NCBI GenBank assembly: GCA_000934665.2
Contig: KZ538816.1
Span: forward strand, 1-46,371
Length of the DNA stretch: 46,371 bases
From: Catajapyx aquilonaris
Lineage: Eukaryota
Reading direction: 5' to 3'
Under the pieces are notes generated by a model that saw only the letters and a program-made list of their open reading frames with translations, was not told the origin of the DNA and ran no database searches. Every line of letters begins with the position of its first letter. The stretch's first letter is position 1. Made by a program: the position numbers and the translations under genes. This document shows positions 12,049 to 40,516 of this stretch, in pieces.

Positions 12049-12081
12049 GTAGGTAATCTTATTACGTAGGTAATCTTATTA
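12049..12081. repeat. Short tandem duplication
   Basis: GTAGGTAATCTTATTA occurs twice, 17-nt period. Confidence 0.85.
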
Positions 12082-17929: not shown

Positions 17930-18078
17930 CAGTACTTCAATTATCCGGATAGCTTGCCTTCAACCGGGCTATAATTGAGTTACTTGGAACTACACAGAAA
18001 AAATGTCCTGAATTGGGAGGCACAGAGAGCAGACCATTTTTTCCCCCTGCGGCTAGCCAGTAATTGCGTAAGATACTG
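17930..18078. mobile_element. Decayed pogo/Tigger-type MITE
   Basis: TA-CAGTACTTCAATTATCCGGATAGC vs rc of right end TA-CAGTATCTTACGCAATTACTGGCTAGC. Confidence 0.45.
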
Positions 18079-21060
18079 TACCTCTACGTGAGCGGTCAAT
18101 ATTCAACTCACCTTTGGACATTGAATTCCCAGCGTTGAAATGATGGTTGCATGGGACAAATGGATTCTACTTGTTACAGAGCACTGCATGCACTTTGGGT
18201 CAACATGATTCTAGATTTGATTACATGTGACTGTAAATTGGGAGTTCATTAGAGATATAATTACAGTAATACTTTCAGGGAAGCTGTAGGTTGATGCTGG
18301 GGCTGATTGGTAAGTAAACGAGTACTATTTACCTTCCTCTTTAAAAATAGTCCCGCAGCTGATTTAATTAGAACTAATTAACATATTGTGGCGGAATAGT
18401 GCTGCAAACTGTCCACAGAAATTATCTTATGAAGTTGTTTATTTCAAATCAACTCACATCTTATCTGAAAAAGCTCAGGTCCTGTATTTGACACTAGACT
18501 GTGACCTGAGCTCATGCAAATAGTCAAAATGCCCCCCTTGCCATTGGAATAGAGAAGAGGCAGTTTTCAGCACACGTAAGCGATGAGTCGTGCACACCAC
18601 CACTCGAACCGCAGGACTGAAAACTTGGGGGGAGTTGTTGAGGTAGTTTGCCCGAGTGATTCCGGGAAGACGCGGCAACCATTTGTGCCAAGTTGGGAGC
18701 GTGCAACCGCCCGAGCGCAAGAGGCATGTTTATCATGCAAGGAGCTGCCATTTCGCCCAGATGATTATGATGCCGCAAGAAAAGCCCTCCTCACTGTTAA
18801 ATGGGGTGGGGTGAGGTGGAGACCCCCCTCACTATAGGCGGGCCTTTCCCTTCGGAGCAGAGGTTTCAACGGGAAAATGACCTTGTCCACTTGTTTCTAC
18901 CCGGATTGCGGCACTCTTTGGCCGCCGCCCAGAATCCTCCATTCCCACTCATTTTCCACTGCATTTGCCGCGCGAGCTATTCCAACCAGGCCCACTGTTC
19001 AACCAGCCTTATTCCCAAAATTTCTATCCTGACTCAGGCTTAGTCCAGGGACACCAAAAGAACCCTTCTTGTTTGTGTGCTGCTAGGTATAGGCACTGGT
19101 TTCAAATCCCGCTGCTAGGATTACTCTACGGTTTTTTTTTTCTTTCTTTCTTTCTTTTATTTTTGTCTCCAGGGCTGGAAAATGTGGCACCAGCTAAGAC
19201 CCCGGGCCCAGTGAAGCAATTTGCTGCCTCAAACACGTCAAGATGATTTTGGATTTATTGCGCCAACTTTGGGGCAAACCTAACGAAGATGTATAGTGGC
19301 GAGACGGTTGAATGCTGATGATGCGCTTTACAAAAGACCATAAATTTACGCACCGAGCTCGCTGCATTTCTCGAAGCCCGTATTCATCGCCCCTGCAAAT
19401 TGAGAGTATACAACAGCTTCACACTCTGACACTTGCCCTTTCATTTTGAACAATGCCCTACTTAAAACTGTCTGAGATATACCAGTATAGCAGGAACTAC
19501 CCAGCGATGTGATGCAGGATGCGTTATAAGCAGTCATTTTTAAATATATACTGTAGTTCTCTTTCAGGTTCAAATATATGAAAATGTTTTGACAAACCTT
19601 GTTGGTATACCGGCTGCGAAAGTCAAACTGCTGTGCTTCATAGCCTATTTGCATTAATGGGTCGGCATTTTCAGATTTAATTCTGAAATTTTACCAGATA
19701 TATTGCGACATTACTATAGTAGGCTACAAGCAAAGTATTGTTCGAGTCAATAAGACAAAATGTTACTTATGAATAAAATCGTTACTGGTGTGTTTAGCAA
19801 GAGAGGATTACAGTTCACAACAGTTTTGGACTATCCCTACGTCTATTACATTCTTTATAGTCACTACATTCATTCCTACATCCTACTGCAACCACTACCA
19901 GAATGAATATAGATCAGGCTTAGCCAGGACAGAACAGTGAGCAGTAAGTTACGTAAATGAATGCTAAGCTGACTGAGTCCTTCTTCACTCCAGGCTGGAC
20001 ACCAATCGCGCGTTGTTGTCGGGACAGTACGAAGGCAGTGGGGATGCACATTAATCTCTTGCCGACATGCTGCGGAAATGTGCAGACCGCTCCGGGACAA
20101 AAGTGTGAAACGAGATTCCATTCCTCCTGGCTGAACAGCAGCATGAAACGCTTCAAACTTCGTCGCCTCTTCAACAATACTCCTCCTTGGAGACATTTCC
20201 CCCCAGCCTTTCAGAACAGGCGAACAAAAATCATTCCGAGGGGGGTACACGAAAAGGAAAAGGGGACGCTTTGACATGATTGTCAAACGGAAATCGGGCA
20301 TTCCAGTAAGGAGGTTTATCGCGTGTTGAATCTTGTGGAAGGAACAAGGAGCTGGAAGCCTCGGTGGGTCTCCCTTTTCCCGTGGCCTCAGCCTTCAGGC
20401 CACACTCTCCCTTGTTTGTTCTCCGGATCCCTACCAATTCGTCCGGGAACGAAAAATCCGATAGCAAGGCAGCCAGTAACGATTGGTACCAAAACCTTGC
20501 TCTCACTTCAACGCCTCAGATTCGGTGTTTTTTTTTCTTTGCTTTTGCTGTACACAAAAATGGCCAGTGCTTCGGCCTCTATAAGATTACAGTATGAAGG
20601 AAGTCTGCCCTGAGGACGCGATCCAGATTTTGCTCAAACTTATTCCAAGGAATTGTAGAGAAGCAGGGGTGGTGGTATTTGAATAACTCATCCCGAGAGT
20701 CAACAAAAGGCCAAGATAAACTTGGCGCCTTGGTGGCTGCCAGATCCCTCTTCTCCCGGCACCAAGCCATTTTCCCGATTGATTCCTCTCAGCCGCTTGA
20801 TTAACCATGTATGAATGCAAAGGAGCCTGAGTGGGGACGGGATTATCAGGAGGGTGGCCAGGAAAACAGGGTACATGACGCGACGGGAGAGAAGCATCAA
20901 CTTGGCGACACCTCAACTACTATTCTCCATGTTCATTTTAGGAGAATATACAATTAAGGAATTATCGTTAATGGGTGGCCAATTCTAATCTTCCTTTTTT
21001 TTCCCATGAGGGATGAAGGCTACTTTATTATAGGTCGCTGGATGATACGCTCATCATCCT

Positions 21061-21133
21061 GGCCCAGTGGCGTAATGAATAACGCGTCTGGTTATGACTC
21101 AGAATATTCTAGGTTCAAATCCTGCCTGGCTTG
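21061..21133 (+). pseudogene. tRNA-Arg(ACG)-derived pseudogene
   Basis: 73 nt colinear with metazoan tRNA-Arg(ACG); anticodon position now ATG, D-loop GG->GA, TTCGA->TTCAA, no adjacent oligo-T terminator. Confidence 0.8.
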
Positions 21134-22169
21134 TTATAACGGTATGTTTAAAGCTTGATGGGATCGTAATCACTCCTGTATAATTTATGGCAAATTTTAA
21201 ATATATTATTTGAAATTGAGGCCATGAGTATAAAGAAGTAATATTGTATATAATTATATGTATCAAAGTTTTGGATATTTTAAAATCATACGGCCTTCAA
21301 AAAGCTCGCCGATGAGGTGGGAATTACTTTGGTATTTCAAACACAATAGTAGCAAATTCATTTTTTTTTGAATTAGAAAGACGTTCATGACAGTGCGGCA
21401 TCATGATGTAACAAGTGGCCGATTGCTGGAAGGCACACTTCGTCTGGCAATGACTAGAGGCTGTTGTTGTTGCTTAGCTTTTTGACTGATGCTGTCCGCT
21501 ATAAAGCTGGGTTCAGACGAGATATGTTCCGGAGCGAAGTGGTAATGCCGGCCGGTCGTTTTCACAAGGCCGACAGCGCTCCCCAAGATTCGTTGACTCA
21601 AATGGGACCGGCACAACAGGACAGTCGCCTCCGGATAGTCTCCCGTGTGAACAATGTTGCTGATATTAACCAATTCTTGGCTTACACGTGGCGGTGATAA
21701 ATTAATTATCCGAGACGGAATTCGAGGTTGCCTAACCCTATACGCATAGCTTAAACTCGTAGGTAAGTCACAAAAAACAACAACTGCGATTCATTGGCAC
21801 GTGTAGCGGTAAACCCTATATAGTACCAGAAGCCCGAGTAACGTGATAATTTAATAGGAAGGCCGGAGGGTGGTAGGTTATGGGCTGATTAATGAGTAAG
21901 ATGGCCGATCGTCCACATTACCTTCACTTGCTTTATGTTGCTAGCCGCTCCCTTAATTTTTAAAATAAAATGAAATGAAATAAAGGTAATAACACCAGAA
22001 AACCCCAAGGAAGAACAAGGAAGATGGTGAAGCGAAGGCTGAGAAGCCATCAGTCAGTGCGAAATCGATAGTTTGTTATAGTCGAGACTGTCAACTGTAA
22101 CATTTGCTACAATCTTTAAAAAAGGCTTCTGATTATGGTACTAAAACACTTTTTCCTCATGCAGTTACT

Positions 22170-22239
22170 GACTTCATGGCGCAGCTGAACGAGCGTCTAC
22201 GGTTCTTAACTCCTCCGGTTCGAATCCGTGTTATAGCCG
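22170..22239 (+). pseudogene. Degenerate tRNA-like sequence (isotype unclear)
   Basis: A-box-like TGGCGCAGCTG and perfect B-box GGTTCGAATCC, but anticodon/variable region shortened and acceptor stem poor. Confidence 0.5.
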
Positions 22240-23541
22240 TTAGCCTTCTATTATAATACAAATAACCTTACAGGCTATACATCTCATTCAAATCAGCCTC
22301 CGCTACGTGTTTCATATCATAATAGCTAATTCCACAAACGTTAATCTTTAACTAACCAGACCACGTTCCCGGATCCGAATTGTAATATTCATGAACATAT
22401 AACACATCTAGGTTTCGCCACGCCACAATACCAGGTCCAAACACTGGGTTACGTGACAAATTCCCAGAACACCTCGAGGGAATCGTTTCATTGCATGGAG
22501 GATTCTTCTCACATGCCGCGATAAAACAAAGTAAAGCGCAATTAGATGCATAAATTAGCGGATGGGAGTTTGGGTCGGAATGCAGTTGGCACAGTCATAA
22601 TCATCCTCCAGCATGTCCCTCTCGGGGGAAAACAACCTAGCTTCTCAACAACCAGATTCAGCAGTGAAACTGCGGAATAGTAAAGTTTCTCTTTTATTCC
22701 TTAGGGAGGTTTTTTCTCGTACAAAAACGTGCCCGTTTGGGCTCAACTTGCACTCGTGGATGAACGAGAAGAATCGGGTTTTCCCATGATGTATTCATTA
22801 AGTCTCAGCAAACGACCGTAACTCCTGCACCACTACCAATCATTTTTTCCATCCTACTAGTTCCACTCTGGTGGAACTCAATAGTTTTACCGGGGGAGTG
22901 GTGAACTATACCACTAAAAATCCTGGGATTTATTACTGCCGTTGGTTCAGCACCAGTAACTCGGCAAAGCACAGCTCAAATGGCAAAGCCTTGAAAACTT
23001 TCTGCACCAAGCTTGTGAGGTGGTCGTCAGAGGATTGGAGAAACGTGAAATGTCTTCCTTGAAGACAACTTGAAAACCTCTAGGCATCTTACGGAACACT
23101 GTCCACGACATGAATAGCAACGTTGGAGGTGGAAAGAAACTTGCTTCAACTAAATAAAAGACGGACCTAATATGAGTGCTGCATGTCAGCAAGCATGTCA
23201 GTGTATATAACACGAGATGATGATTATTTGTAATATTTTTAAATTAACAAATAAATAAATACGTTAATTAATTAACAATGACACAATAAATTATTTCATT
23301 AATGGTTTGTCTACATGTTCATTGCCTAAACAATCCTCTTCGATAAAGGATAATACAGTATAGAACCCGTCTTTCATGTACAGTACGTATTTCCAGCCGA
23401 TTGTCAAGTCGGAGGCCAAGTATTGCTGGTTTCTCCATGCCTAATTTTCAATCGGTTTCCCAAAGGTTTAGTTACGTGCAACACCGGTCCACGCGTTGAA
23501 TATACAAAACAAAAACAGTTTTGGAAGGGAAAGAAGGCCTA

Positions 23542-23614
23542 TGACCCAGTTGCGATTCGAACCCAGAATCTTCTGATCCGAAGTCAGACGCGTTATCCGT
23601 TGCGCCACTGGGCA
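23542..23614 (-). tRNA. tRNA-Arg(TCG), probably impaired/pseudo
   Basis: Minus strand TGCCCAGTGGCGCAACGGATAACGCGTCTGACTTCGGATCAGAAGATTCTGGGTTCGAATCGCAACTGGGTCA; D and anticodon arms intact; 1:72 mismatch and two T-stem mismatches (CTGGG/CGCAA). Confidence 0.8.
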
Positions 23615-24339
23615 TTTTGTTTGAATTGCATTGATAGGCAGGGTAGACAATATTTAAAAATAAAAATAAACAACAATGGACATGCCTATATTGTTGCAAG
23701 AAAAATCCTACTAGTACTTGCAAGTGCATATGCAATATTAATTATTATTAATATTATTTTCGCTGATGTAGGCCAGTGTGAACAAGAAGACAAGAAGATC
23801 GCGGGTATCTGATCAACACTTCTCATCTGTGACAAAAATTGAGACGTTGACATGGGAAAGGGTGTAAGTCACACATGAGATTTTTCGCAGGGGCTAGGCA
23901 AAAACAAACAAGTTTTGAAAACACCGTGTGGCAGATTTTATTACACGAAAGATTTATTATTAGTGGATTTGATACACAAAGTCATGAAAAGTTAAAGTAA
24001 AAGCAGTTTATGAGTTTAACATTTAAAGGTTTAAAGGTAGGCTACTTTTTTTCTTTTTGTGGCACATTTCTCATTGTGACTTACGTCCTTTTCCATGTCA
24101 ACGCCTCAATTGTTTCTCTACTCAACAGTTCAAGCCTGACTGGAAGGTTCTTGTCACAAGCAAGCGTGTCAGACTTCCTGGGAAAAGAGAGAATAGTTCC
24201 ACCGAAGTGCGCCACGATCCATATAGCAGTTCGTCCAGTTGATGAAATGACAAATTAGCGAACTTTATTGTATTAAAGCGTGGCCTCCAAGCATTCAACA
24301 GAGCTATCGATTCCATGTGCAACTGACCACAAGTCCAAG

Positions 24340-24750
24340 TCCAAAGAGACAAGCAGGCTGCTATAGAATCTCGATATTGTGCAGAAATTCTGAAAGGATG
24401 CCAGAATGGGAAATCCGCTCATCCCATCCATCTCTAAACACGTAAAAGTTGTTAGGTCCATGGTACAAGATATAATCAACAGGTGCAAGGACACAACTTA
24501 CACTCAATTGCAGCACAAAAAAGCGATCTGGCACTCCACTTAAAAACCACTCAACAGAGATAGAGCTTTAATGTGGATCATACGGGGGGGAAAACCGGTG
24601 GATGATTACACTGAATGGTCTAAAGAAGTGATCTATAGCTGCGCTGTTATTGTCACATGTACGAGTAATCTCTCAATGTGCCTCATGCAAAGAAGCCCCT
24701 CATGAGCACTCCAGAAGAAAAAGCGATTATATAGAGAAATAGTTGGGCAG
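24340..24750 (+). pseudogene. Tc1-family transposase relic (N-terminal DNA-binding domain)
   Basis: With frameshifts reads AEILKGCQNGKS / SISKHVKVVRSMVQDIINRCKDT / KKRSGTPLK-TTQ-DRALMWIIR / AKKP, matching the Tc1 paired-like HTH, RSGRP.KTT..DR and KKP motifs. Boundaries approximate. Confidence 0.7.
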
Positions 24751-25594
24751 GAGGGCCATGACGTTATGTATTTAGTGACGCGCACCCACTATACAGTACA
24801 GTAAGTTATAGTATGAGAGGAGAAAAAACTCTGTTTGGCTAGATCTCTTGTTTGCCCGATATTTGCTATATCTATCTTGGTGCGAAATCGACGTCGCTCT
24901 GCATGGTTGATTTCGTAACGTGAGAGTGGAGACAGCGCTCAGGACGTCATGACAATGACACTGGAACGCTGTTGTTAAACTGCTTTCATTCATATTCATC
25001 CTATATTCCAAATATGAATGAAATCGGAGTTTAACAACTCGCTGCATTCCCTTGTGAGAACCACCATACGATTCTATTGCAAATAATGTGACCCACTGAA
25101 ACTCCCCAGGATGCGAACAACACGTAAATGCAAGTAAAATTTGAACATCCTGGACCCTATAGCGTTCATTAAAGGGTTGTTCCATAACAAGTGTCGACCC
25201 TCTGCATCTATCATTTAAAAATTGTGGCTGCAAACACTACGTGAAATGAGTGTAGTCCAAATAAGAGTCACATATTTCTGAAAAACCGATGAAGATGAAG
25301 TTTTGTGGTGTGACTGATACTTTTAAAACCGTACATGAGCGCAATCAGTATTAAGAAGTAAAGAAACGATTTGTAGAGAACAGCCAGGAACAAGTGAATA
25401 CCCCCGCTTCATAACCTCATGTTCTGCATGACCTCAATGTACGAATTAATTTCATTCAGACGTGATTATATTATTAATCTTCACTACTACACTATTATAT
25501 GCTCTTCGTATAGTTAGATTTTGCTTGCAACAATATCGCCGTGGCCATTGTTATTGTTTAAAAAATACTGTCTACCCGGCCTACGAATGTCATT

Positions 25595-25667
25595 CAAACA
25601 ATGGCGCAACAGATAACGTGTCTGACTTCGGGTCAGAAGATTCTGGGTTCGAATCCCAGCTGTGTCA
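25595..25667 (+). pseudogene. tRNA-Arg(TCG) pseudogene, inverted paralog of 23542-23614
   Basis: TGGCGCAACAGATAACGTGTCTGACTTCGGGTCAGAAGATTCTGGGTTCGAATCCCAGCTGTGTCA; T arm intact, oligo-T at ~25676-25682, but a ~9-10 nt deletion removes the 5' acceptor strand. Confidence 0.82.
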
Positions 25668-26228
25668 TAGGCTTCTTTTTTTCTTGCCAAAATTAATACC
25701 TCTTTCAACTGTTTTCAATACGTTTTAATAATTTAAAATTCACATTAAAGGCGTTCCTTATATGTTTTGCAATTAAACAGCACATTCGCAATCAGAAAGT
25801 CTTTTAATTTTGCTGCCGTTATATGAAATTCAGAAACAATCTCTGATAAACAAAATGTTTTTGTGTATGCGTGTGTCTTGTAGTCAAAACATATTTCATG
25901 TCGAAAAAGAAAACTCGTAGTAAAACAAATAACCATTGCAATTACCATTGGAATAATTTGGGCAGAAAATTTGATTATTAATATTATCTATATTTCTAAC
26001 CGCTGCACGGTTTGGATGATATTGATTATTTGGCTTTATTGCAGCACTTTATCCGAGATATGCCGACGTTGTAGGAGATGCATTTATTCATGTGATTCCC
26101 TGTTCCATCACCTAATCTGTTCTCTAAACCACTTAGTTTGCGTGAAACTTGCAGCATCGCCACCGGAAACAGCCATAATTAATTAGGATCTTCCTTTCGA
26201 GATTTTCCGCCCAGGACAAAGCCAGGTA

Positions 26229-26464
26229 CAGATATAGTTCACATTTTACGACGTTTCACATTAACAGTGCATTTAAAAATGTACATTTTGAAAACCATTT
26301 GAAAATAACAAAAAAAATGAAACAATAACACATCTCTGTGACATCTCTGAGTCGATGTTTCATTTTCCGTGGTGCCATGTGGCAGAGTACAGATATGTTT
26401 TACTATACGTTTTACGATCCTGTTTTGCTGGAACCTAACCCCGTCGTAAAATGGGGCCTACCTG
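26229..26464. mobile_element. pogo/Tigger-type MITE
   Basis: TA-CAGATATAGTTCACATTTTACGACG vs rc of right end TA-CAGGTAGGCCCCATTTTACGACG; subterminal GGAACCTAACCCC is Tigger-like. Confidence 0.6.
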
Positions 26465-28644
26465 TATAATGTTCACTCGACTAACGATGCTTCCGTTACC
26501 GATGACTCTCTCATCCATATATGCAAAATCAATTGTTACTCCGCAGCTCTCGGCTCTAAAAATGTGCTGCTCGTAGACTTCAATACTGCATGCCATTAGC
26601 TACCAGTATAAAATTCACGCAACTCACTCTGACGAATCTTCCAAATTCGGACACTGCAATTCATGCAGTAGCAAGAGTCTATGATTCAGTAAACAAATCC
26701 GTATAGCTCTCCTCTCGAATATGACAAATAGGAGCATATCCTTTGTGACATGAAACGATCGAAACACTGCACTGTTTTATTTTTGCAAATATGCACCTCT
26801 CGAACGTCAGGCGGAGCGTAAAATTACGCGCCGCAATGTAAAAGGGCCTTTGAGCTATAAAATCTCATCAATTAAATGTCAGCGAGACAAGTTTGGCAAA
26901 TAATACCTGAAAATGTCAAAGAGTCACAGGGAACGATCCGAAGCTAACTATGCGCACATGGGCCCCCGCTTTCCCCCAGAACTGAGCCTGCATGACACGT
27001 TCAGGGCTAGAGAAAATGACATTCTTCGTCCAGCTCGCACAGAAATGAAGTGCTGTCACTTGAAAAGATTGCAGCTATAGTAATTCCGGAATGCTGTCCT
27101 TGTTGACTGGCAGAAGCTGGCAGCCAGCTGCACATACATGCAGGTCACACTGTACTGTATAACCCCCTTTATATCATAATGTAATGACGTCAAGTGGATA
27201 GAAGGAGAGGTGCCACATTATACGAGCAGTGTTTTATAGGTTGCTTGTTGGCATTTTGTGCCATACTGGAGTGGAATGTATTACAGTGAAAGGAATGAAA
27301 AATATGCATATATTCATAACCTCAATGCATGTGTATGCTACTGCTCTATTTATAAACTAATGTGTATATACCAGCTACTTTCCAATTCTCCTCGGGGTAT
27401 ACTGTAAGTTACAACCTGTTACACATAACCTAAAGTCACAGTATGTTACATAACGTTATGCGATGATAAGAAATGCAAACCAAGTTCAGCTCAGAATTCG
27501 AGGCCCGATCCTGCACAGTCACATGTTGCATAAACAGAGTGGAACATGTTTTGCCACTGAATCTAAAGTGCACTCACGTTTTCCCAGTAAAGAGCTCCAC
27601 CTTTTACTAGAGCAAAAGCGGGTTGGAGGGAGAGGGTGGTACTAAAATTCATGCTCTCCGTGTTGGAACGTCTGCACACCAAAAGCAGCATGTCTCTCCA
27701 ATTCTGATTCAGCAAGCCCAACGGTTCAGAATAACATGTTTTTCGACTTTCCTCTTTTTTTTCTGACACTGAAAGACTAGAGAGGCTGCGTCAGCTGGTT
27801 CCCAACTAGCGTATATTTTACAGAGGCCGTCCAGCATGTCCTCCGGGACGAAGCGTCTCTCTAGATTTTTTTTTTTAAAAAAAAGTTCCTTTCTCCAGAG
27901 ATTCACGGGGGAAAGCCAAGCCGGCCTTCTAAATCCTTCTTTATTTCGGCCGGTTAGCCCCAGGCTCAAAATTCGTCCCCCGAAGCCCACTTACGGAGGG
28001 ACCACCATGGCCTCAACAATGTGTGAGGTGCTAACCTCATCAAGAGTCGGACAATATCATTTCGCTGCGAGGCCTCAAAATGGGGGCCCGACCCGAAACC
28101 ACGGGCTTGTTAGCGTGAGGTGAATGTGGCCTGAAATTTTTGCAGGCCCGCGTTTCTCTGCGTGTCTTTTGCCTGGAGGTTTTGTACCGGCATGGAGAGG
28201 GGGGAGGGTTTTTCGGGTAACGGGCGAAATGTTGGAATTTTCCGCCGCTGCTGCAGCTAGAAAATTATTTTGTAATGGAGGACCGGTGTGGTGGAAAGGG
28301 TTTACGGCATAACTATATCAGTTGCGGTTCGCGTTTTTGTTGGGATGAGAACATGCTGGATGGGAGTGGGTAGGGCTAGCAGCACATCCCAGAGGTAAAA
28401 TTGCTTCAAGAATAAGCGTACACCTTTAAGCGATATTAAATTGCTAGCAAATTTGATAGAGCCTGTTTGTTAGGACCTCCCAAAATATTGGAAAGCTGTG
28501 GGTTCTGACACTTCTAATAGCTCAAGGATGATTATGTCGTGCAATTGTATGTGTTAAATACTGATTATAGTACAGGCCGCTCTCATATTAATCACTTGTC
28601 AAGTACACTCAAATACTGTAAACTAATACTGCAGTTATCATATA

Positions 28645-28973
28645 CAGGGTGTTTCAACTTTTTGTCCGAACAGTTATCGGAAAATTGCACGTAGCTGCTA
28701 CTTTGCAAGCAGTGACTTGCAAACGGTGATTTTTCGGAGGAACGGGGAATATTCCCTGCGAATCGTAGGTTGAAGTGGCATACATGCTGCCCACTGAAAA
28801 TAGAGGGTCGAGCCTTGAAAAAAGAGGGTCACACACGCCATGGGATGTGCGACCCTCTTTTTCCCCATTCCACATTCCTCCGACAAATCACCGGTTGCAA
28901 GTCACTGCTTACAAAGTAGCAGCTACGTGCAAGTTTCCGATAACTGTTCGGACAAAAAAGTTGAAACACCCTG
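28645..28973. mobile_element. Tc1/mariner MITE with ~100-bp TIRs (CAGGGTG termini)
   Basis: Arms ~28645-28742 / ~28875-28973 largely complementary; TA on the left; extra internal hairpin GAAAAAAGAGGGTC...GACCCTCTTTTTC at ~28818-28863. Confidence 0.9.
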
Positions 28974-31538
28974 CGTATTGCCAGTCAATTGGTTCAAATA
29001 GTAATTTTAGTAGCTGAGGAAGCTGCAAATGCAACAATGCCGCTTCGATGGAGATCCATATTTCTGTGCTAATTCCTTTGCCTTTAAACCCTTGTTTAAA
29101 CCTTTCCAACTTTATTGTACAGTACCGGTTTGATCGTTTGCATTTTGCATGGACTTCAATATGGTGATGTAATACTTGGAAGGTTTATTACAAAATCTAA
29201 GTTGCTCAATTGATTTCCGAGTAAACCTATTTGGTCATACGAGGATAGTGAGGACCTCCTCCTTGATATCCGCTGGCAACCCCATATCTGTTTGGGAAAC
29301 GCCGTGAAGATGATGATGATGATGATGACAATCAAACTATCCCAAACATTTAGGAAGCTATGAGAATGCCCCATTTCCCCTTTTCAATTTCAGATTATAG
29401 CCATAAAAAACCTGAATATTTCGTCGATCCTCATCCATCTGTGCTTTACTATACAGCTAAAACTTTTCTCCGAAACCAGGTAATTTCCACTGTGCAATAA
29501 ACTTACATTGATAAAAATTGAGATGTCAGTTGACAAGCCCGCGTGCACGGAAAGAGGAAAAGCCAAATAAAAATTGAAAATAATTCCGTTGCTTCCCAGC
29601 ATGACGACTCTTGGACTCCCAGCGGGAACACAAACCTGCCAACGCTCATTCGCCCCCTATTCTTCCGGATTACCATCCACTCATTTTTTACAAATTCCAG
29701 AATATTACCATAAATTCCCTCGATACCTCCTGGATTTTCTCTTTCAGTGACTATACCTCATCCTTGCTCACGACGGAGCAATTCCTTCAACATCACCAAT
29801 CAGGGAGATGTACAGCCTTGGTGACGGATGGCTGGACACAGAAGAAATGGTGGGTAAGAAGCTGAATTCCAAATCACCAGAGAGTTGGGTTGCCGCATCT
29901 TCCTTTCCCAATTTTTTTTTCTGGTTGGTAAACGGGTCCAATCCTCCTGGCAGACCTTAGCTTAGTCGTGCGAGAGTCGTAAAAATGACTAGAATCGTGG
30001 GTGCAGTTGGTCGGAGACGAGCACTGATTCCCTCAGCGTGAAACGTCGGAAATGGGACAGACTGAATACCTGCAATTTATTCCCTCGCGCAATTAGGCCT
30101 GTTCGGTAGTGACACTTGTCACGCTGTCATTTAACGTCCTGGACCTGCTGGGTAAATCCCCGACTGAGAGCTAGCCGCCAGCTTAACTTTTTTTTTTTAC
30201 CAATTGATTCCGGCCAGTAAAAACCACTGAGTTATAATGAGCACACCTGAGATTTTGAAACTCTTAACGATCGGGGAGTCAGCTCAAGGCACTGTTGTTA
30301 ACACTCTCCGGGAAGGGATTTGAGCTTAACTTTGGACCGAACTACTGCAAATTGATTCCACTTCAGCTCGTCTTGGAGAAAGACACAACTATAGAAGAAA
30401 GAAAGGCCGTCAGATCAGCCCGGAATGATCGCTTTTCCGACTCTCCAGGGGTTTCCCCTCCTTTTTCCTCAGCTGGTTCGGAACACAACTCTCTAAGCCA
30501 TATCATAAATCCATTAAAAGTATTGAAGGTGGATTCTTAACCACATCTGCCGGATTCACCCTGTTTCTCCTTTCGGGAGAGTGTGAGAAGAACCCTTTTG
30601 TCTGGTTCTTCTTGTTTTTTTAAAAAAAGAACCGCTGCAGGCTGTTCCCGTTCTAATTTTTTGACAGCACTGGGTTTTCTAAACGAGGGAATGATTTCCC
30701 TCGCCGCTTGCTCATTATTCTCTTCTGACCCAAGCAGTTTCGGCCTCCATCTTCACCTACCGTCCCATTTATTTCAAGCTTGCACGTGAGACACATGCCG
30801 GCGTTTTATTACCTCGGCCTTATTAAGAAGGTGGGGATCTCAGCAGCCTCCTCCTGGGATGTCCACATTTATTAAAGCGATCTTTCTGCCAACGTGGATT
30901 AATCTCCACAATTTCAACAGTAGCCGACCAAAAATGGGGTATTGCTGGGAACATGTCCACATTATTACGCTTCATACCACCCAGTGGTCAACAACCGACG
31001 ATTTATGTCGCGGACCAATGCAGTAATGCATTCCGCCGCTTAGAGAGGGTCAATTAGTGCCTGGCGCGTCTCGGCAATTTTGCACATACACAACAATGTG
31101 TGGGGGAAAACCTTCTCTGGACGAATGGAGATGGTTGTATATGGGGGGAAAAAAGCGAGACCGGTTTAATGGCTGTGTGCGGCGGCCAGTCTCGCTCTGT
31201 TAGCTATGGTTCCAGTCAATTACTCGGCGCAGGACCGGATGAAACTGTCGGCCGCTCCATCTTCACTTCCACTTCAGAAGGAAATAGGCCTGGGAAAGTG
31301 TTCCGATTCAACTCTGCCAACCATTGCAAAAACAGGAAGGATCTTTTGCTAGTTTGTCCTCCTGTACCCCGCCTACTTCTACTTCTCGCACCGTATCGAC
31401 AGGCGAAGGGAAGTCTATAGATTGGTTCCTAACTCAATTTCCTACCGGAGAATACAAAGCAGGCAGATGCGTTGTTTTTGCTTCCGGGACAATTCCTTGC
31501 CAGACGAAAGAGGCAACAAAAAAAAGAAGAAGAAGAAG

Positions 31539-31552
31539 NNNNNNNNNNNNNN
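31539..31552. other. Assembly gap (14 N) between a GAA repeat and poly-G; single N also at 40259
   Basis: Ns in the sequence. Confidence 0.98.
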
Positions 31553-34500
31553 GGGGGGGGGGGGGTCCTCCCAGAACAAGGAATGGCGACAGGAATAGCC
31601 TACTCTGGCGCCATGCTAGGCAACGACATCACGCTCCATCCGTTACAAAGTGTAAGGAATCCAAGCAGCTGACTTTTCCTAAGAACTCCGCTTGCGAGAA
31701 GCCAATTCGGCTCTAACGCCTGCCTTTATTCGGGACATTAGGCTGTAACAACCCGGAGGCAATAACTATACCTGCTGGACGAATGCTTTACTCTAATCAC
31801 CTACTCCCTGACTAAACACTTTTCCCCTCCCTTACGTCGTTCTGGTACCTCCCATGTTTATTAAAAAAAGAGTTTAGTTTGCAGGGAAAAAATTCCGATT
31901 TTTTTGCCGACTAGAATTGATTGGTGCGAGTGAAGCGTAATATTCTGGCTTCCCATTCACTCTACCTGTGGGCGATTTTACTGTAAAAAAAATCGCATAA
32001 TAGCCCATTATGCAGCGAACACTTTCCCAGCGATTGATTAAAAAACGCCGAGCGCAATGTCCAGATATGCGGATGAACAATTACGGATTTATGAATTAAA
32101 AGTTTCATCCATTTAAAAAAAATCGAGGGGAAAAAAAATACTTGGTAGAATCTCCATCTTCATGCAAAGTGAATCGCCAGCCAGATTAGAACCGGGCCCA
32201 TTCCGCGGTTGAGATGGCCTTACCGCCCCTCACCAGCACCAATTTCCTTCCCGCAACAAATCCCGAATGTTGCCAGCCAACGAAGCAAAAACCTCCCCCA
32301 CGTAAAGGTCTAGGGAGGTCACCAAGCTGCCCTAAACTACACGACCTACAACAAGGGCCACCTGCAATCTTTATAACGAGGACCGCAGATCCTAACTGGG
32401 GACCTTGCTGCACACACGCACCAAAAAAAAAAAGAGAACCCTTTTTACAACCTCAGCTAACGAGGACCCGTGTCGAATGACTCGCTGGGGGCACACAGAT
32501 TCCATTCTGTAGGTGCCTCTGGACCGATCGCTGTTGCCTGGAATTTTGTGCATAAGCCTTTTCCACTCTTTTTCGGAGGGCCCAACCAGCCCTGCGGGAC
32601 GTGCGTTACAAAATCATGCACGCCGCTTTGCAGGTAATCAATGTAGTCCCTGGTATAATGCAATAATAATTATCGGGCCAATGCACAACGCAAACAAGCG
32701 GGCGATGTGAAGGACTTTGTTGCGGTCACCCCTATAGAAAAAGGACGAAAAAAAAAAAGAAATCGGAGCAGTGTGGCAGTGTTCCGCCTACCTCAATAAA
32801 ATAATCCGGGACCGGCCCTAAATCCGTCCCACACAGACTCCCAGAGGACCGATTAAAATCAGTCACGTCGGACAAAAGAGGCCCCAAAAGATTCTCGGAG
32901 AAGATTTGTTGGAGTGACAGGGCGGGTCCGGTGCGGCTCCATGAAAACCTGGCCTCCCCCAAAAACCGAAAGCAATTCCGCTTATGAGTTCGCAGCCAGA
33001 AGTGCTGGCGTCAGCTCTGCTCTTGGGGACAAAAAAGAGCCTGCTGACATGGCAGATGACAGGACAAAGGCATTCCAGAAACTCGGACCACAGTTGAATG
33101 CACGAAAAACCTGGAGAAATTATTTTGCGAATAATTACTTGCGTCTATTGCACACTGAGCTGCTTGTTTTGTTTGATTTGCAACTAGAATGAGGTGAATT
33201 TAGAGTGTTAATTTGAGTTGTATTGAGCCAGACGGATTAGCCAATAGGAATGGGCAAGGCTGGTCTCTAACCAATCACGCCTCACGCTTCGCAAGTCAGT
33301 TTAGTCTACAGTATAACGGATTAATTAATCATTTGCTGGGACTCGGGCAATATCCCGAAGGTTTCACTACCCCATCGTGTTTCCCCAGGAAAGTCAGCGA
33401 TTGTTTACTCGAGAGTGACCTCAGGCCGTCGGAAGTTGCAAACTTAAATCTCCCACTTTTCCGCTGGAGTAAACTTGACACGCTGCGCCTGCCATTAACT
33501 TAAACCGGGCTCAAGTGGGAAATCTGCTCTTCGTCTAGGGAGTAAGCCGGCCAAGATTGCTTCCAGGCTTAGGTCAACTAACAGCACAAAAAAAGCTGTA
33601 ATTAAGTACTGGGGAGTAATGGTGATTTAGTAGCAGGGTCTCCGATTCCTACACCTAATAGTCGTCTGTCGAGTAATTATGGGGCCAATAATTTATAATT
33701 CCACCCCATCCCGGTCACTGGGTCTGCTGGGAAGAGGGAAGCCAATTGAGCTCCAATAGGCGATTCCCTGGCTTGTCTCCTGCTCGTGATTTGCATGCAA
33801 ATGATCTCATCTGGGATATAATCATTCTCGGAAAGAAGCGATCCGAGTTGGGGGCGTTGAAGAAGATTTGGATCCTATTTCTCTGCCAGTAAAGAAATGA
33901 AGGCGATGTAGTGGCAAAATGGAACGTCTGTGAGGGATTTCATGGTCCTCAAGCTAGATGAGGAGCTGTGGTAACCTGGTGTGTAATGGACCTGTCACTT
34001 TTACCCACTGAAATACTGTAAATTGTTCGGCTGGGCACTTTGTTCTCGGAGATTAATCACGCTCCTTTGGATGGCTGCAAAAGGGAAGGCATTTTTAAAT
34101 TCAGATTTTGTCGCAGTGGCTTTTGTGGTGCTATATCAGCCCAATGCCATTCAAGTAGCTATTACGTGCTCTTATCACTCAGGTTGAAATTAAGTTAAAA
34201 AGAGCTTGATGAAACGATATTGACATCTTATAACTCATGTTAATATAAAAGGTACTTACAGTATATGAGGAGTGAGTGTACTTCCTAAATTATACTGCCC
34301 TAAGGACCTTCTATAAAATGTCTCGCAGACCAAAGTTTGGCTCCTCAGGATCATTTTATAGCACGTATTATGGCAAGGGCGTGCCCTCGCACTAAAAGTT
34401 TTTTGGGATCGCGTTTGTTGTATTAAAGTCTTCTTTGATATTTACACAGAACAAAGAAAGCGGTGCCAAAAAACAGAGTGGAAAGGTGAAGAGAGGCAGA

Positions 34501-34802
34501 GCGTCTGTGGCTACGGATATAACTTTTGAAGTCCCAGATCAATCAGGCGTTTCTTTCCCACACGATGTGGTTGCCAGTTGTCAAATTTCGACATATCCGC
34601 CAGGGAGAAGCCAACAAAGAAACTGGTCTCATGTTGACGGTGGCAAAAAGGACCCGACACGCAGGCCAGGCGGTCCGCACTATTTCCATTGACAACAACA
34701 ACAACAGAGCTCACATATACGCACATTGGGCCCCAATTCATGTTATTGCCCTAACACAACATTGCATATTTATACAAAATATAATAGTTAGTGGTTAAGA
34801 AT

Positions 34803-34977
34803 AGGGCCGGTCCCCGACTTATGTATAAGTGGATCGTTCCTCAATATTAGGCGCCAAAATTTGACTTGCATTATCGTAATTATCGGAATTTTACATTAAC
34901 ACTTTAATCCGTAGATATTTCGAGCACGTCGATTTTTCTTTCATAAGTCCGGATCTACGTAAGCCTAGGATGTCCTG
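34803..34977. mobile_element. Decayed Tigger-type MITE
   Basis: Left GGTCCCCGACTTATGTA, right CATAAGTCCGGATCTACGTAAGCCTAGGATGTCCTG-TA; resembles the GTCCCCGACTTACG...CGTAAGTCGGGGAC TIR type. Confidence 0.5.
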
Positions 34978-36496
34978 TATAAGCTCGAAGGTACAGAGTA
35001 AGAATTGTTTATCCGCAATTCCAAAAACCGAAAACCTCCAAAATCCGAAGGTTTTTTTGAGATCTGAAATGACGCTCAGAATATGAAAAATTTCATGTGA
35101 GTATGACAAGGCTCGACAAGGCCTAACCTCATGAGCATGTGGATTACTTACATGGGTCAGATAACTAATTGGTGTTTGGTGTGAAATATTTTGAATCCGA
35201 ATTATTGGATTCTTCTAATCTGCTGAAAAAACGGAGTATGCTAACAAATCTTTTTCTCCTGAAAGAACAGTTGTTGCATTACTTGTCCTGAACCTTCCCA
35301 CTGACTGTCAAACCTGTGAAGATGTATAAGATTCAATGAGTACATTCTCTGAATTAAACTCGTAATTTTTTAATGATTTTTTTTATGAAAAGTGGAACAT
35401 TACGCATTATGATTTCACCTTTTACGTAGGAACAGCATATCCGTCTTGAATATTTCCAATATTACTACCGCTTGCAGATATGGGAACCTAATGTCGTGAT
35501 ATGTCACATCAGTGTGTCCATAAAAAACTATTTTTAATATCTGAAAGTGGTTTAATGAAACGCAGGGAATGTTTTTCTGACTCCTGAAAAACGACATTTT
35601 TTTGTCATAACCTACCCTATATTGTTTTTGCAAAAAAAAGGGGGGGGGCTTCAATTTCAAAAGGGATAACACTATCTGAAACAAACTCGCATGACCATAT
35701 TCTGTCCAGGAATTTTGAACAAGGGCCAAATTAAAGTCAAGCATAATTTCTGAAGTAACGGTAACTTACTGGCGTAATCACCTAAAGTCCTCAAATATAA
35801 TTATTCAGAAGAGTGATGAGTGGTGCAAATGATAGGTTGAAATCTTTTGATATCAATAATAAAATTAATATCAGTGAGTAATTTTAGTTCGTTTGATGAT
35901 AGTATACTTCAGCCCCTTACAATGTGAGTCACATGTGAGTGACCTGTTTACCTTTTGTGCGCACGTGCCTTAACGTGGTGCTATTTCTCGTTCTGTTGGT
36001 ATTTCCACTTTTAATCAAGTTCATTTCTCATTGCTATTAAATAGATGATATTGCGCTTCACATTTCACACATTATATTTCGAAAAGTGTTGAAAAAATTA
36101 GAGATTTTACCGAATAGCAAAAATTTCCCCGTAAGCTCCAGGGTTAAGACAATATCTGAGCTGTCAAACCCATGAGTTTACCTGAAAAGGGTAAATTGAA
36201 AGAAGTCATTCTTGCTACCAATGTTGCCAATTTCAATGTTCTCTGTTGTCAAATATTTCATTTATATTCTGGTTATAAATACTCAACATTTTAAACAAAT
36301 GAAGTACGGTTTCTATGGTTGGTTACCAGGGTTTGATGGTATTGAGGCTCTTTATTGTTGTCTCAGGTTGTGTTCGGGGTCTCGAGAATAAGACGCAAAA
36401 AATTTACTTTGTGTGAGTATATGTTGTTATTTCCTATATCGGTGGAATTTTACTTAACTTAATTACAATACAGGGCAGGTATCGTTCAATGTTGCG

Positions 36497-37303
36497 ATGT
36501 CTCGTTCGAACGACCGACTTACGGTGAACCATTCATGGGCTCGAGGCACGAGGCACCGGATAGACAGGGTCCTTCGACGATACCCTAGCCCCCCGATGCT
36601 TGGACAACTAGTGGAGCGGGCCTCCACCACGGCACTCTCAGGCAGTGACACAGGTGTAGCACGGCTTGCTGCACTAGAGGAAGAGGATTCATTTGATGCA
36701 GAATCCTATGAACATGGTATTAACTACCGGTACAAGAACACCAAGCGCCCTGGATCCCATCTTATGCTCACTAATATCTTGAACCCTGACGAGACCGATG
36801 ATGACCCCGAGGCTGCCGAGCAAGAAAGGGCAAACAGGAGCCTATTTTTGCAAGAACTGATATTGTGTACCCTCACAGAGAAACCTGCCGTTGACATCAC
36901 GCCCGCAGATCCTGAGGCAAGTACCTCCGCTGCAACTCCAAACCAGGACGAGCCTTCTGCCGGAGAGAATGCAGCCGACGATGAGTCAAATGATGGCCAA
37001 TCATATCTGTACTTGTCGAATCTTCTGCAATCCATGTCTGTACGCGACGACCCTGACTTGATGCCCGCTGTCCCTGACTCTACTACCACCGCCTCAACCC
37101 CGGATCTGGACGGGGCTTCCATTGCCGAGAAGCCTGCCGAGAAGCCTGCCGAGGAGCCTGCCGAAGAGCCTGCCGAGGAGCCTGCCGAAGAGCCTGCCGA
37201 GGAGCCTGCCGAGGAGCCTGCCGAGGAACCTGCCGAGAAGCCTGCCGAGAAGCCTGCCGAGAAGCCTGCCGAGAAGCCTGCCGAGAAGCCTGCTGACAAC
37301 TGA
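36497..37303 (+). CDS. Orphan 268-aa acidic, largely disordered protein with (AE[K/E]P)14 tail; nested antisense in the GPCR intron
   Basis: Longest ORF in the window, ATG start, 209 open non-repeat codons, visibly GC-richer than flanks; candidate 5'UTR exon 36367-36412 and 61-nt intron 36413-36473 (GTGAGT..CTTAAC..CAG); TATAAATA 36274; AATAAA 37557. No family recognised. Confidence 0.65.
   Translation: MSRSNDRLTVNHSWARGTRHRIDRVLRRYPSPPMLGQLVERASTTALSGSDTGVARLAALEEEDSFDAESYEHGINYRYKNTKRPGSHLMLTNILNPDETDDDPEAAEQERANRSLFLQELILCTLTEKPAVDITPADPEASTSAATPNQDEPSAGENAADDESNDGQSYLYLSNLLQSMSVRDDPDLMPAVPDSTTTASTPDLDGASIAEKPAEKPAEEPAEEPAEEPAEEPAEEPAEEPAEEPAEKPAEKPAEKPAEKPAEKPADN
37124..37291 (+). repeat. 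12-bp coding minisatellite x14 (GCCGARRARCCT)
   Basis: 2x AEKP, 7x AEEP, 5x AEKP; other variants are synonymous GAA/GAG in the ORF frame. Confidence 0.97.
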
Positions 37304-37740
37304 GATGATCTTACTCAATAACACGGGTGATGAAAAGCACAACGTTTAAAATCTCTAGATATCTGTTAAACAGTGGTCGTTTGTGCTTGAATCATTTATG
37401 TTTCATAAATGATTAGCTTTTTCTTTATCAAAAAATGGACACGAGTTTATTTTTAAGCCGAATTTGTAAAAGGTAGTTTAGACTATCAGTATCACTCATT
37501 AGGCACAAGTGGAAGTTGAAGATGTGCCACTTTGCAGAGTGCTCACACTTTCATAAAATAAAATTTATCGTTGATGTCAAAGTAGTTGAGTTGGTTGATT
37601 TTCAGGGGTTACCCGGCAGTAATGGAAATGCTGGCATCATTACCTGTTGGTGTACGTAAGTTCTGCAAAATTATTATAAATTAATAAAACCTATACTATC
37701 AGGGTTATTGTATAACCTACATTAAGAATATGAATGTATA

Positions 37741-38264
37741 CAGGGTGTAAATGAATTCGGGGGACAAATTTGCAGGGGTAATAGAGGGGACCAAGACAAG
37801 TATTTTTCATATGGGAACCCGTGTCCGGAAACGCCATCTAGAGGGGGTTCATAGACAAGAAACGGGTGCGCTCAGACGCGTCAGGCGGGCAGCGTTATCG
37901 AGCGGACCTTGCTAGGTGGCGCGCGGATTGTACACAACTTCGCAATTCGCCATAACCTGGCAACAACGGAGTTGTTGTTTATTATATCTGCGCGCTACCT
38001 AGCATGCTGACTTTAGTTGATAGGTGGCTCTGTTGTTGCCAGGTTATGGCGAATTGCGAAGTTGTGTACAATCCGCGCGCCACCTAGCAATTAAACGGTC
38101 CGCTCGCTAACGCTGCCCGCCTGACGCGTCTGAGCGCACCCGTTCCTTGCCTATGAACCCCCTCTAGATGGCGTTTCCGGACACGGGTTCCCATATGAAA
38201 AATACTTGTCTTGGTCCCCTCTATTACCCCTGCAAGTTTGTCCCCCGAATTCATTTACACCCTG
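37741..38264. mobile_element. Young palindromic Tc1/mariner MITE, ~230-bp TIRs (CAGGGTG termini)
   Basis: Arms 37741-37971 / 38028-38264 differ by ~5 substitutions and one 6-bp indel; flanked by TATA / CTATA. Confidence 0.93.
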
Positions 38265-38387
38265 CTATACATGGATATTGTGTTAAAGGATTTATATCCC
38301 ATCCCAAAGCTGCCCCATATTATACTGTAGATGCAAATATACAAAAATGTTCCAGAATCCGAAATCCAAGCATGTCGGATGAACAAT

Positions 38388-39052
38388 GGGGAACTAGCCT
38401 TGGTCTGGGATTTGGGATTTTTGTTCATAACTAGCTAGCCCATGCCTGTAAACATACATTCCATCACTCTGTTGCATCAAAATGACATTACTGGATAAAT
38501 TACGGCACATTTAAAAGTGCCTTCAAAATTGGCGGGAAAAACGCCGCTGCCAATCGAAAGGGTACACTGAAATGCCTGGTTGACTGCGAGATATGAGGAA
38601 TTTGACTTTGAATGAACCGCGGACACGACGGGAAGCATTCGCAAGGCGGCTGTAGGCCATCGAGGTGGAGAAAAGGGGGCCTTCATGTGCCGAATTCGGG
38701 TGACAGATGATTCCTGCCAGTTGGCACCCCTGCCAGCCCCTTAGCTGATTGAGCGGCGTGAAGTAAAAACGCGCCCCGGCCGCTATCTTGCTCACGGAAT
38801 GGGACGGTTGCTAACAACAGCGAAGCATTTTACAACAATGACGGGGCGCGTTCTATAACACCATTTTTGCGTTCATTTCACTTCGCGTGACGTCAACATT
38901 TTCTAGGGAAACAGTGACGTCACCATTTCCCTACATAAAAACCCCAATTACTCCGGAACGGGAACTGATATCTTAAAACGGAATATGACAAAAAAATCCA
39001 AAAAATATGGGCGAATTTATTATGTAGTTTCCAAAATGAAGGCTAGTTCCCC
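38388..39052. mobile_element. Non-autonomous DNA transposon with AT TSD (ISL2EU/PIF-Harbinger-related)
   Basis: Perfect 14-bp TIR GGGGAACTAGCCTT; AT on both sides (38386-7, 39053-4); removing it restores the host Tigger TIR to exact length, which fixes the TSD at 2 bp. Confidence 0.75.
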
Positions 39053-40405
39053 ATTCTCAACCTGTATCACTACAGGCAACTAGAAAGGATGGGTCTGGTT
39101 GGGGGCGGTGGGGAAAACTGGATTTATCTGCATATAGTTTCACAGGAAAGTGTCCACTCCCGGTCCATGGCGGTAGTATTAAATGAGACATGTCATGCCT
39201 CGCTTCAAGAGCAATCATTTCAGTATCATCACGCTCACATAATGCATATACCGGCATGATTATACGATATAGCCTACTCTTTCAAGTTAAATAATTACAG
39301 TAATTCCATAATAGTCTCTTCAGATCTATATCATGAGACCACAGTCATTGTTTCATATTCGAAATGGGGGAGGCCAACCATTACGCAGGATCACCTCGAC
39401 ATAACAAGTCCCGTGCCTTTTGCGTAGCGATTGAATTTCCGTTCGACTCTCGAGTTCAGAAGAGCCAAAAGTGCCAAGGTTGTTGGAAACATCGGAGCCA
39501 AAAAGCCATCAAAAGTTATCCGCTGGTTATGCAACCCAAGGGCCTGGGACGTATGAGAGGGCTGTGCGTCATCCAGGATGACTGCTCTAAGGACCTTGGG
39601 GAGGGCAGCCGGAGACAGCGGAAATGAAGAGGCGATGGTTCAAGCCAAGAAAAAGAAGAAATTGGGCTTTGCCGGACTGCCCGACGCGGACTACATGAAT
39701 AATAAGCGGGGGACGAGGGAGGTAGGAAAGGAATAAAAGTTGTCGCTGTCCAACTCAAAACCCACATTCCGGACCGAAGTGTCCCTATACCATGGAAAGT
39801 GCTAACAGACCAACCGGAGTCAATGAACCGTCCAAACTGCTGTATTATACTGCAATATTTTACTTCTGTAATTGGGCAATGTAATTAGCGACAATTAATA
39901 TAGTGGCATTTCTCATCACAGTTTTAGTGGTCCCTGATTTTAATTACATGAATGCTAATGGATGTTGTGGGAATCCACTTGCTTGATTAAAGTGCCATAC
40001 CCCTCGTTTTTTTTTTTTTTTTGAGCGAGTGTCATATGTGAAATGATACAATCAACTGGGTCAAGTTTAGCCTCTGCTGCTCAGACCTAATGTGCCCGAA
40101 ACGAGGGGCCAAATAATCCATCTCACGGCGTCAGACCAGTATGTCGCGTAGTACAGACCGGCCTTCCATGACGTGCTCTTACGATACTCCATCACTGTCA
40201 CAAGCATCCTGAAGGGATGCTGGGAGACGTGGGAGGTGGCATAGGAAGGGGGGGGGGGNGTGCACCCCCAAGTATTTTGCTCAAGTGCTCCCTGCCTACA
40301 CGGGTGAACAAGTGTCCATGACGGGAAAGTGTCACATGGTCCCCTAAACTGATGTACTTCCCACGCTCACCGTCACAAAGGTTATTGCACCAAAAGTTTA
40401 CTTAC

Positions 40406-40516
40406 CACAATCAGGATGAAGACTGGGACGATGAAGGATAGAACCATTCCTCGCTCAACGGACATCCAGCAATATCGTCGTGTTTCGTATCCTTGAGGAT
40501 TGACCACGTAACTCAC
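40406..40516 (-). CDS. Adhesion GPCR exon: end of TM4, ECL2, TM5
   Basis: Acceptor tttgcAG, donor GTAAGT, 111 nt, phase 0/0; VSYVVNPQGYETRRYCWMSVERGMVLSFIVPVFILIV has the GY....CW....G....F..P class-B signature and joins VNT of the next exon. Missed by the ORF track. Confidence 0.9.

Follow-up and report, generated by a model that had tools for sequence, protein, structure and literature searches.

The window analysed here is a stretch of 46,371 nucleotides of Catajapyx aquilonaris (contig KZ538816.1, positions 1 to 46,371; C1569 in our numbering), in which a predicted gene of 268 codons sits between the two halves of an old miniature inverted-repeat transposable element (MITE), inside an intron of a G-protein-coupled receptor (GPCR) gene. 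We lean towards the reading that this gene is derived from KCMF1, that it entered the MITE as a DNA copy, and that its product offers a pin for UBR4. The part of this reading that concerns the origin of the gene, taken alone, we regard as quite likely. The original prediction had described the unit as a candidate Pack-TIR, with the ends of a terminal inverted repeat (TIR) element enclosing an orphan gene. The paralogs and the KCMF1 homology reported below contradict the orphan status.

Results

The predicted protein carries the C-terminal helix of KCMF1

Searching the PDB with the open reading frame (ORF) returned three matches, all of them human KCMF1, aligned without gaps over residues 288-331 (E 5e-5). 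Here R114, L116, F117, L121 and L123 of the window protein match R316, L318, F319, L323 and L325 of human KCMF1, and the position of V320 is occupied by Leu. The genome also holds a clean 8-exon, 601-codon KCMF1 model with ZZ and zf-Di19 domains, on contig C187. Residues 87-136 of the ORF align with residues 384-433 of this KCMF1 with 25 of 50 amino acids identical; at the nucleotide level the identity is 65% over 124 ungapped bases, and at the three codon positions it amounts to 27, 34 and 20 of 43. The hhalign probability for the link is 96.8%, and ten residues (E, R, S, L, F, Q, E, L, T, L) are invariant in five aligned sequences. Against 1.84 billion proteins, searching with a profile gave two matches, both with the helix motif and one of them with ZZ and zf-Di19 domains.

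No ZZ zinc finger was found in the window ORF or in that of its open paralog on contig C4843, while the C187 gene has one; the Di19/DZB zinc fingers are absent from the window ORF, as is any Pfam domain above cut-off. On this comparison the gene appears to be derived from KCMF1 without being itself a KCMF1, two defining domains being absent. A word-indexed protein search gave no match for the ORF and none for the last-exon piece of KCMF1, so that this search is insensitive to the short helix motif; an Atlas search with the ORF gave no usable match. With a net charge of -34 and a single Cys in 268 residues, the product is predicted to be a mostly disordered acidic chain whose sole recognisable motif is the pin helix of KCMF1.

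The match runs ungapped over the junction of KCMF1 exons 7 and 8, the last splice junction of the gene, which suggests a processed ancestor. The end of exon 7 agrees with the window at 19 of 25 bases and the end of intron 7 at 15 of 25, with profile scores of 39.6 versus 34.2 bits.

Two wider extensions of the homology were considered and not retained. A chain of N-terminal motifs like KCMF1 exons 4-5 was seen in the window copy only (p 0.01-0.03 with cheap gaps) and was not accepted. Likewise, the candidate intron or the upstream block cannot be read as a remnant of KCMF1 exon 1 or of the ZZ exon, as a profile of the three copies matches KCMF1 at the helix only.

The KCMF1 gene on C187 has two peculiarities of its own. 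Its intron 4 (L052, 7431-7774) begins with AT and ends with AC, and its donor and branch words are of minor-spliceosome type; the model stays in frame across it, and it is presumably a U12 intron. The 3' end of intron 7 resembles that of exon 7 at 19 of 30 bases (L053, 4309-4338 versus 2535-2564), as if the intron came from a local duplication or held a decayed alternative exon end.

Gene signals and paralogs

The signals named in the original prediction were recovered: the ORF itself, a TATA-like box (TATAAA at 36274-36279), a candidate intron of the 5' untranslated region with GT..AG ends (junction 36412/36474) and a polyadenylation signal (AATAAA at 37557-37562). The assembly searched comprises 285.6 Mb in 20,583 contigs and, given this fragmentation, counts from genome searches are lower bounds. 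The ORF matches six places on four contigs, namely itself, C4843, C1412 (three pieces) and C187, the last being the final exon of KCMF1. The C4843 paralog is open, with 47% amino acid identity to the window ORF, and the C1412 paralog is frameshifted. Both keep the upstream block, the candidate intron and the position of the ATG, and C4843 also keeps the poly(A) region; the TATAAA word is not kept in C4843.

The candidate intron is more conserved among the three copies than the ORF segments (87-90% versus 52-75%; Fisher p 2e-4 versus the ORF and 7e-5 versus the 3' flank), and its genomic matches number three, one for each gene copy. These conserved 61 nt may act as a regulatory intron or as a core promoter. 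Their reading as a structured RNA or mirtron was rejected for now, given that Rfam gave no match over the candidate intron (one match elsewhere scored far below the gathering score) and that no hairpin is common to the three copies.

Purifying selection on the gene family

Purifying selection on the family is evident from comparison of the copies, as the original prediction had hinted. Between the window and C4843, the ratio of nonsynonymous to synonymous rates (dN/dS) over 202 codons is 0.44 (bootstrap 0.29-0.63; 0/1000 replicates at or above 1). It falls to 0.22 over residues 83-131, the lowest block among those with estimable dS. The proportion of nonsynonymous differences (pN) is 0.25 for residues 7-45, 0.21 for residues 173-208 and 0.27 for the helix. 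In a codon-blind DNA alignment, all 12 indels within the ORF are multiples of three, whereas only 1 is among the 12 internal indels that lie outside it; this count omits the two terminal gaps and assigns to the outside a 10-nt gap directly preceding the ATG.

The arms are halves of one MITE

The arms are the halves of a single 361-bp, TA-flanked MITE cut by three insertions, since their four pieces are colinear with the consensus, nothing was lost and a rare TIR variant is common to both ends. The consensus was built from 30 extracted stretches, two of which were the same place (L016, a duplicate of L038, was omitted). The window pieces are identical to it at 284 of 341 bases (83%), other family copies ranging from 68 to 91%. 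The two-base variant shared by both window TIRs occurs in 1 of 21 other left TIRs. As originally described, the TIRs at 34994 and 39064 have TA on both sides and the right one has to be rebuilt across an insertion; when these 665 bp are skipped, left and right agree at 18 of 22 positions. Both arms stood as real and proved not to belong to different families; the extents given for them did not hold, as the left arm ends at 35113 rather than at about 35150, and 524 bp of the right arm (37741-38264) are foreign, forming a separate palindromic MITE.

At the cargo site, the MITE broke at consensus positions 118-119 of 361 without loss of sequence, and the junction shows a 2-nt overlap (CT) in consensus coordinates, which at this length may be due to chance. 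TA target duplication and short TIRs are marks of pogo/Tigger MITEs (PMC7386202). The window MITE has both, TA being also found in Tc1/mariner and hence not specific. Pogo-type transposase genes are present in the genome (54 DDE_1 matches); among the best 30 of these 54 loci, searched with 1.5 kb flanks, none carried the MITE ends and no autonomous partner was found. The likeness of the arms to Tigger4, named in the original prediction, we regard as tentative.

The two elements nested in the right half differ in their relatives. The palindromic MITE has some elsewhere in the genome; the 665-bp element, inserted 12 bases from the tip of the MITE and presumably ISL2EU-like, has one partial relative among the loci compared (76% over 148 bp). 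Elsewhere, at C4843:11803-12405 (L038, 2803-3405), one copy of the split MITE's family apparently lies nested, with its orientation reversed, within another; the site is 1.5 kb upstream of the conserved block of the C4843 paralog.

The cargo is a mosaic

The insert measures 2,517 bp (35114-37630), so that the cargo originally placed between the arms is there and its size of about 2.4 kb is corrected; as stated at the time, it holds no transposase, the only long ORF being that of 268 codons. It consists of an old dispersed repeat, a segment common with C1412 and the gene unit proper (36151-37626), the repeat filling the first ~530 bp, which corrects the earlier description. Its nearest relatives are rearranged with respect to it, and the identity to them is 64% (575 and 576 matching positions in 895 gap-free columns). 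Homologs reach both cargo ends to within 1-4 nt of the junctions, in C1633 on the left and in C4843 on the right. The whole of C4843 and positions 24001-49844 of C1412 contain self-contained MITE copies only, with no halves bracketing the paralogs.

An old low-copy repeat, X, adjoins the dispersed repeat of the cargo, Y, in C1633 and C1189, and adjoins the broken paralog in C1412. It was located in C1633, C1189, C378, C1412 and C799, and may be a trace of the neighbourhood in which the gene originally lay. No further gene copies adjoin the X-Y repeat in seven stretches of C1189, C799, C378 and C1633. Separately, a 150-bp repeat of C1633 (3687-3836; region L055, 3060-3215) has near-identical copies (97-99%) among the 40 scored of 1,223 candidates, and hence was recently active.

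Genomic setting

The whole unit lies antisense in the intron of a secretin-family GPCR gene, as the original prediction had it. The flanking minus-strand exons (40406-40516 and 11111-11332) correspond to consecutive positions of Pfam 7tm_2, 135-170 and 171-242, with scores slightly below the cut-off (20 and 17.6 versus 20.6 bits). The same intron contains tRNA calls at 21060-21134 and 23542-23614, His (anticodon ATG) and Arg-TCG; the His anticodon is unusual and the call is possibly a pseudogene or a short interspersed element. Elsewhere in the window, 3852-4154 is an exon of an NAD(P)H-binding gene (NAD_binding_10), which we assume to be flavin-reductase-like.

Table 1. Features of the split MITE, its cargo and the surrounding locus (positions in the window)
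Feature	Position	Strand	Remarks
29-kb intron of secretin-family (7tm_2) GPCR gene	11333..40405	-	whole unit inside, antisense
Left TA target-site duplication	34992..34993	.
MITE piece A, consensus 1-119, decayed left TIR	34994..35113	+	96/118 aligned bases identical to consensus
Insert (cargo) splitting the MITE	35114..37630	+	2,517 bp, no poly(A) tail
Old dispersed repeat Y, left cargo end	35115..35645	.	35314-35640 multi-copy; 35115-35314 matches C1633
Segment Z	35707..35982	.	inverted at the C1412 paralog locus, 69% identity
Upstream block W, candidate promoter or 5' exon	36151..36342	+	77% to C4843, 86% to C1412
Candidate 5' untranslated-region intron, GT..AG	36413..36473	+	61 nt; 87-90% identity among three copies
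ORF of 268 codons	36497..37303	+	acidic, few aromatic residues, under purifying selection
KCMF1 C-terminal pin-helix segment	36752..36883	+	residues 86-129 = human KCMF1 288-331
12-nt tandem repeat, 14.2 copies	37123..37293	+	encodes (E/K)PAE tail; expanded in window copy only
AATAAA plus GT-rich downstream stretch	37557..37626	+	C4843 homology to 37626, 4 nt before right junction
MITE piece B, consensus 118-216	37631..37740	+	83/98 identical
524-bp palindromic MITE	37741..38264	.	arms 98% complementary; TA left, right duplication not clean
MITE piece C, consensus 212-352	38267..38387	+	94/114 identical
665-bp element, G-rich TIRs, apparent 2-bp AT duplication	38388..39052	.	inside right TIR
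MITE piece D, consensus 351-361, plus right TA	39053..39066	+	right TIR tip 39053-39064; TA 39065-39066

Discussion

The history that we favour would have begun with the 8-exon KCMF1 gene, giving rise, presumably by retroposition, to a truncated copy without the ZZ and Di19 fingers that acquired an upstream block and a 5' intron of its own. The new gene was then duplicated at the DNA level to at least three copies, those now seen in the window (open), in C4843 (open) and in C1412 (frameshifted). A 2.5-kb genomic piece would next have been patched into an internal break of the MITE in the GPCR intron, probably by gap-filling repair, and two elements later nested in the right half, one of them in the TIR. 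The resulting protein may form a complex with UBR4 that lacks the ZZ-DZB substrate module, as a competitor of KCMF1 or as an adaptor acting through the blocks at residues 7-45 and 173-208.

By cryo-electron microscopy, the C-terminal helix of KCMF1 has been described as a pin inserted under the lid of UBR4, and the substitutions R316E/F319E/L323E/L325E or L318A/F319A/V320S as blocking assembly (PMC12286842, PMC7618180). KCMF1 is a subunit of the UBR4-KCMF1-calmodulin (SIFI) ligase (PMC12286842); its ZZ-DZB module is reported to engage substrates, and KCMF1 without residues 1-140 to bind UBR4 with lower affinity (PMC13721120). The window protein resembles this engineered form. It is like KCMF1 in that the pin helix is ungapped over 44 residues with R316, L318, F319, L323 and L325 kept, and unlike it in having neither ZZ nor Di19/DZB fingers, the homology being established at the helix alone. 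Plant DI19, as described in PMC7618180, is likewise a natural pin-helix partner of UBR4 without a ZZ domain; there, however, DI19 is the main cofactor and the ZZ comes from UBR4 itself, whereas here an intact KCMF1 persists and the derivative has no fingers at all. The genome of C. aquilonaris has UBR4, with an exon (C2424:11207-11920) whose best named matches are from insects (54-59% identity); four tryptophans in it are invariant, and we infer that this exon holds the lid. That the window protein occupies the KCMF1 socket under this lid, as a decoy or an adaptor, we find plausible, though at slightly less than an even chance.

One may instead suppose the same origin and a real coding gene whose helix no longer binds UBR4, the protein acting with another partner or through other motifs. 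The blocks at residues 7-45 and 173-208, for which KCMF1 homology is not shown, equal the helix in amino-acid constraint by their pN values, the C4843 copy is altered at the L325 position, and Ssk-FB4, a captured gene of Drosophila melanogaster, is apparently outside the complex of its parent or binds it weakly, as reported in PMC8277862. Conversely, the residues invariant in the five sequences include R316, L318, F319 and L323 of the UBR4-facing set, and dN/dS is lowest in the helix block among the blocks for which dS can be estimated. We consider this alternative unlikely, and keep to the reading in which the helix serves as a pin.

The original prediction also offered the possibility that the gene was mobilised by the MITE, as a mobile, multi-copy Pack-TIR. 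Both ends and TA duplications from one element, pogo-type transposase genes in the genome and an assembly in which searches give lower bounds would agree with this. Nevertheless, no second arm-plus-cargo copy was found in the assembly: with the left end as query, 33 matches were obtained, of which one is the window itself, 28 fall on the arm and 4 on sequence within the cargo; none of the 32 other matches extends more than 2 bases past the left junction, both of the other matches to the right-junction query begin at the junction, and none of the 30 MITE loci contains cargo sequence. In addition, the paralogs lack bracketing arms, the ends are absent from the best 30 of the 54 DDE_1 loci, and only 1.4% of animal Pack-TIRs are multi-copy according to PMC8277862. 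With its left TIR decayed and its right half interrupted by two nested elements, one of them inside the TIR, the unit is immobile. We therefore judge this alternative improbable; the option that the gene was inserted into the MITE accords with the colinear halves, the absence of loss, the shared rare variant and the arm-free relatives.

Whether the name Pack-TIR applies depends on its definition in PMC8277862. The unit is flanked by a single TIR element with at least 10 bp at each terminus, its 2,517 bp lie within the range of 100-5,000 bp, and the paralogs are not bracketed by the element (C4843 as a whole contig, C1412:24001-49844). A unique parent at least 90% identical over 80-120% of the length is missing, the best relative being 64% identical and rearranged; since the 90% rule favours young cases, an old unit such as this one falls outside. 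As to the exclusion of retroduplicates, the cargo was apparently copied at the DNA level with respect to its paralogs, with shared intron and upstream block, and is apparently intron-less with respect to KCMF1. The label thus holds in the single-copy, transposition-independent sense, and not under the rule of parental identity.

In that sense, the closest likeness is to the gap-filled single-copy Pack-TIRs, which are reported to have internal breakpoints, tiny losses and a median microhomology of 2 bp (PMC8277862). The window unit shares with them (e.g. Pack-Tigger1) the two halves of a short old element, the internal breakpoint, the single copy, the near absence of element loss, the 2-nt overlap and the arm-free relatives. 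It differs from them in its 2.5-kb cargo holding a whole candidate transcription unit, their median being 224 bp, in the purifying selection on its cargo and in having no donor identified. Ssk-FB4 is also a whole coding gene between TIR ends with a parent in a protein complex; as described in PMC8277862, however, it is young, multi-copy, transposed and nearly full-length, whereas the window unit is old, single-copy and immobile, and retains one ancestral motif.

Direct retroposition of an mRNA into the MITE would explain why the insert ends ~65 nt past the AATAAA, and a target duplication, since decayed, might account for the 2-nt overlap and for an 8-nt direct repeat close to the left junction. 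Yet neither a poly(A) tail nor a target duplication was found at the insert, the candidate intron is kept, ~1.3 kb of upstream DNA with an unrelated repeat is included and the sequence past the poly(A) signal matches C4843. We give this alternative very little credence. Rather, copying at the DNA level would be indicated, because the cargo has its upstream block, its intron and sequence past the AATAAA and has no poly(A) tail. The suggested capture from an arm-free parent fits the two arm-free relatives, the better of which is only 64% identical.

Equally little credence goes to a window copy that is recently dead or silent, its signal of selection being inherited from the donor lineage. A pairwise dN/dS cannot place selection on a branch, and the tandem tail is expanded only in the window. 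However, the insert postdates the MITE, and a simulated neutral frame of 208 codons at 17% divergence is stop-free in 2.5% of cases and in 0/2000 with indels (12% and 0.2% at 10% divergence). A neutral frame would thus rarely stay open at the divergence of the arms unless the gene arrived late, and a late arrival would escape the open-frame argument. Finally, the de novo origin of an orphan gene within the MITE, to which the lack of Pfam, word-indexed and Atlas matches might point, is refuted by the arm-free paralogs and the clear KCMF1 homology and has a negligible probability.

Several points weigh against the reading that we favour. No direct donor was identified in the assembly, the nearest relatives being 64% identical, and the two cargo ends match different contigs, on the left inside a repeat. 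The comparison relies on three gene copies, all within one genome, and expression and splicing of the window gene are predicted from sequence only. The intron loss is weakly shown, as it concerns one junction at which the intron end resembles the exon end. Outside the helix, KCMF1 homology is not established, the candidate matches (shuffle p 0.01-0.85) being post hoc and inconsistent between copies. The dS of ~1.06 is near saturation and above twice the MITE divergence (17%). As for the helix, the L325 position is Cys in the open C4843 copy, and further changes occur in the broken C1412 copy; moreover, because loss of the N-terminal part of KCMF1 lowers its affinity for UBR4, as reported in PMC13721120, the window protein may compete poorly.

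TIR elements are known to enclose captured DNA; the published animal cases are mostly short fragments, and the one coding family among them is young, so that an old, whole and selected gene inside a MITE would be an uncommon end state. We tentatively propose, as a conjecture that we hold with limited confidence, that this lineage has pin-only KCMF1 derivatives, exchangeable subunits of the UBR4 (SIFI) ligase that would fill the socket and keep the ring while silencing or redirecting substrate choice through new disordered motifs, one of them being the selected gene in this dead MITE. Among the papers listed by our literature searches, most of which made no mention of KCMF1, none was seen to report a pin-only KCMF1 derivative or paralog, which is weak evidence of novelty; the sequence index of the scan likewise contained no look-alike. 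The question of the helix can be tested directly with a 44-residue peptide. If our proposal is true, the pin-only protein would show that the UBR4 socket can take other subunits, and would open a way of inhibiting or retargeting UBR4 in a tissue-specific manner.

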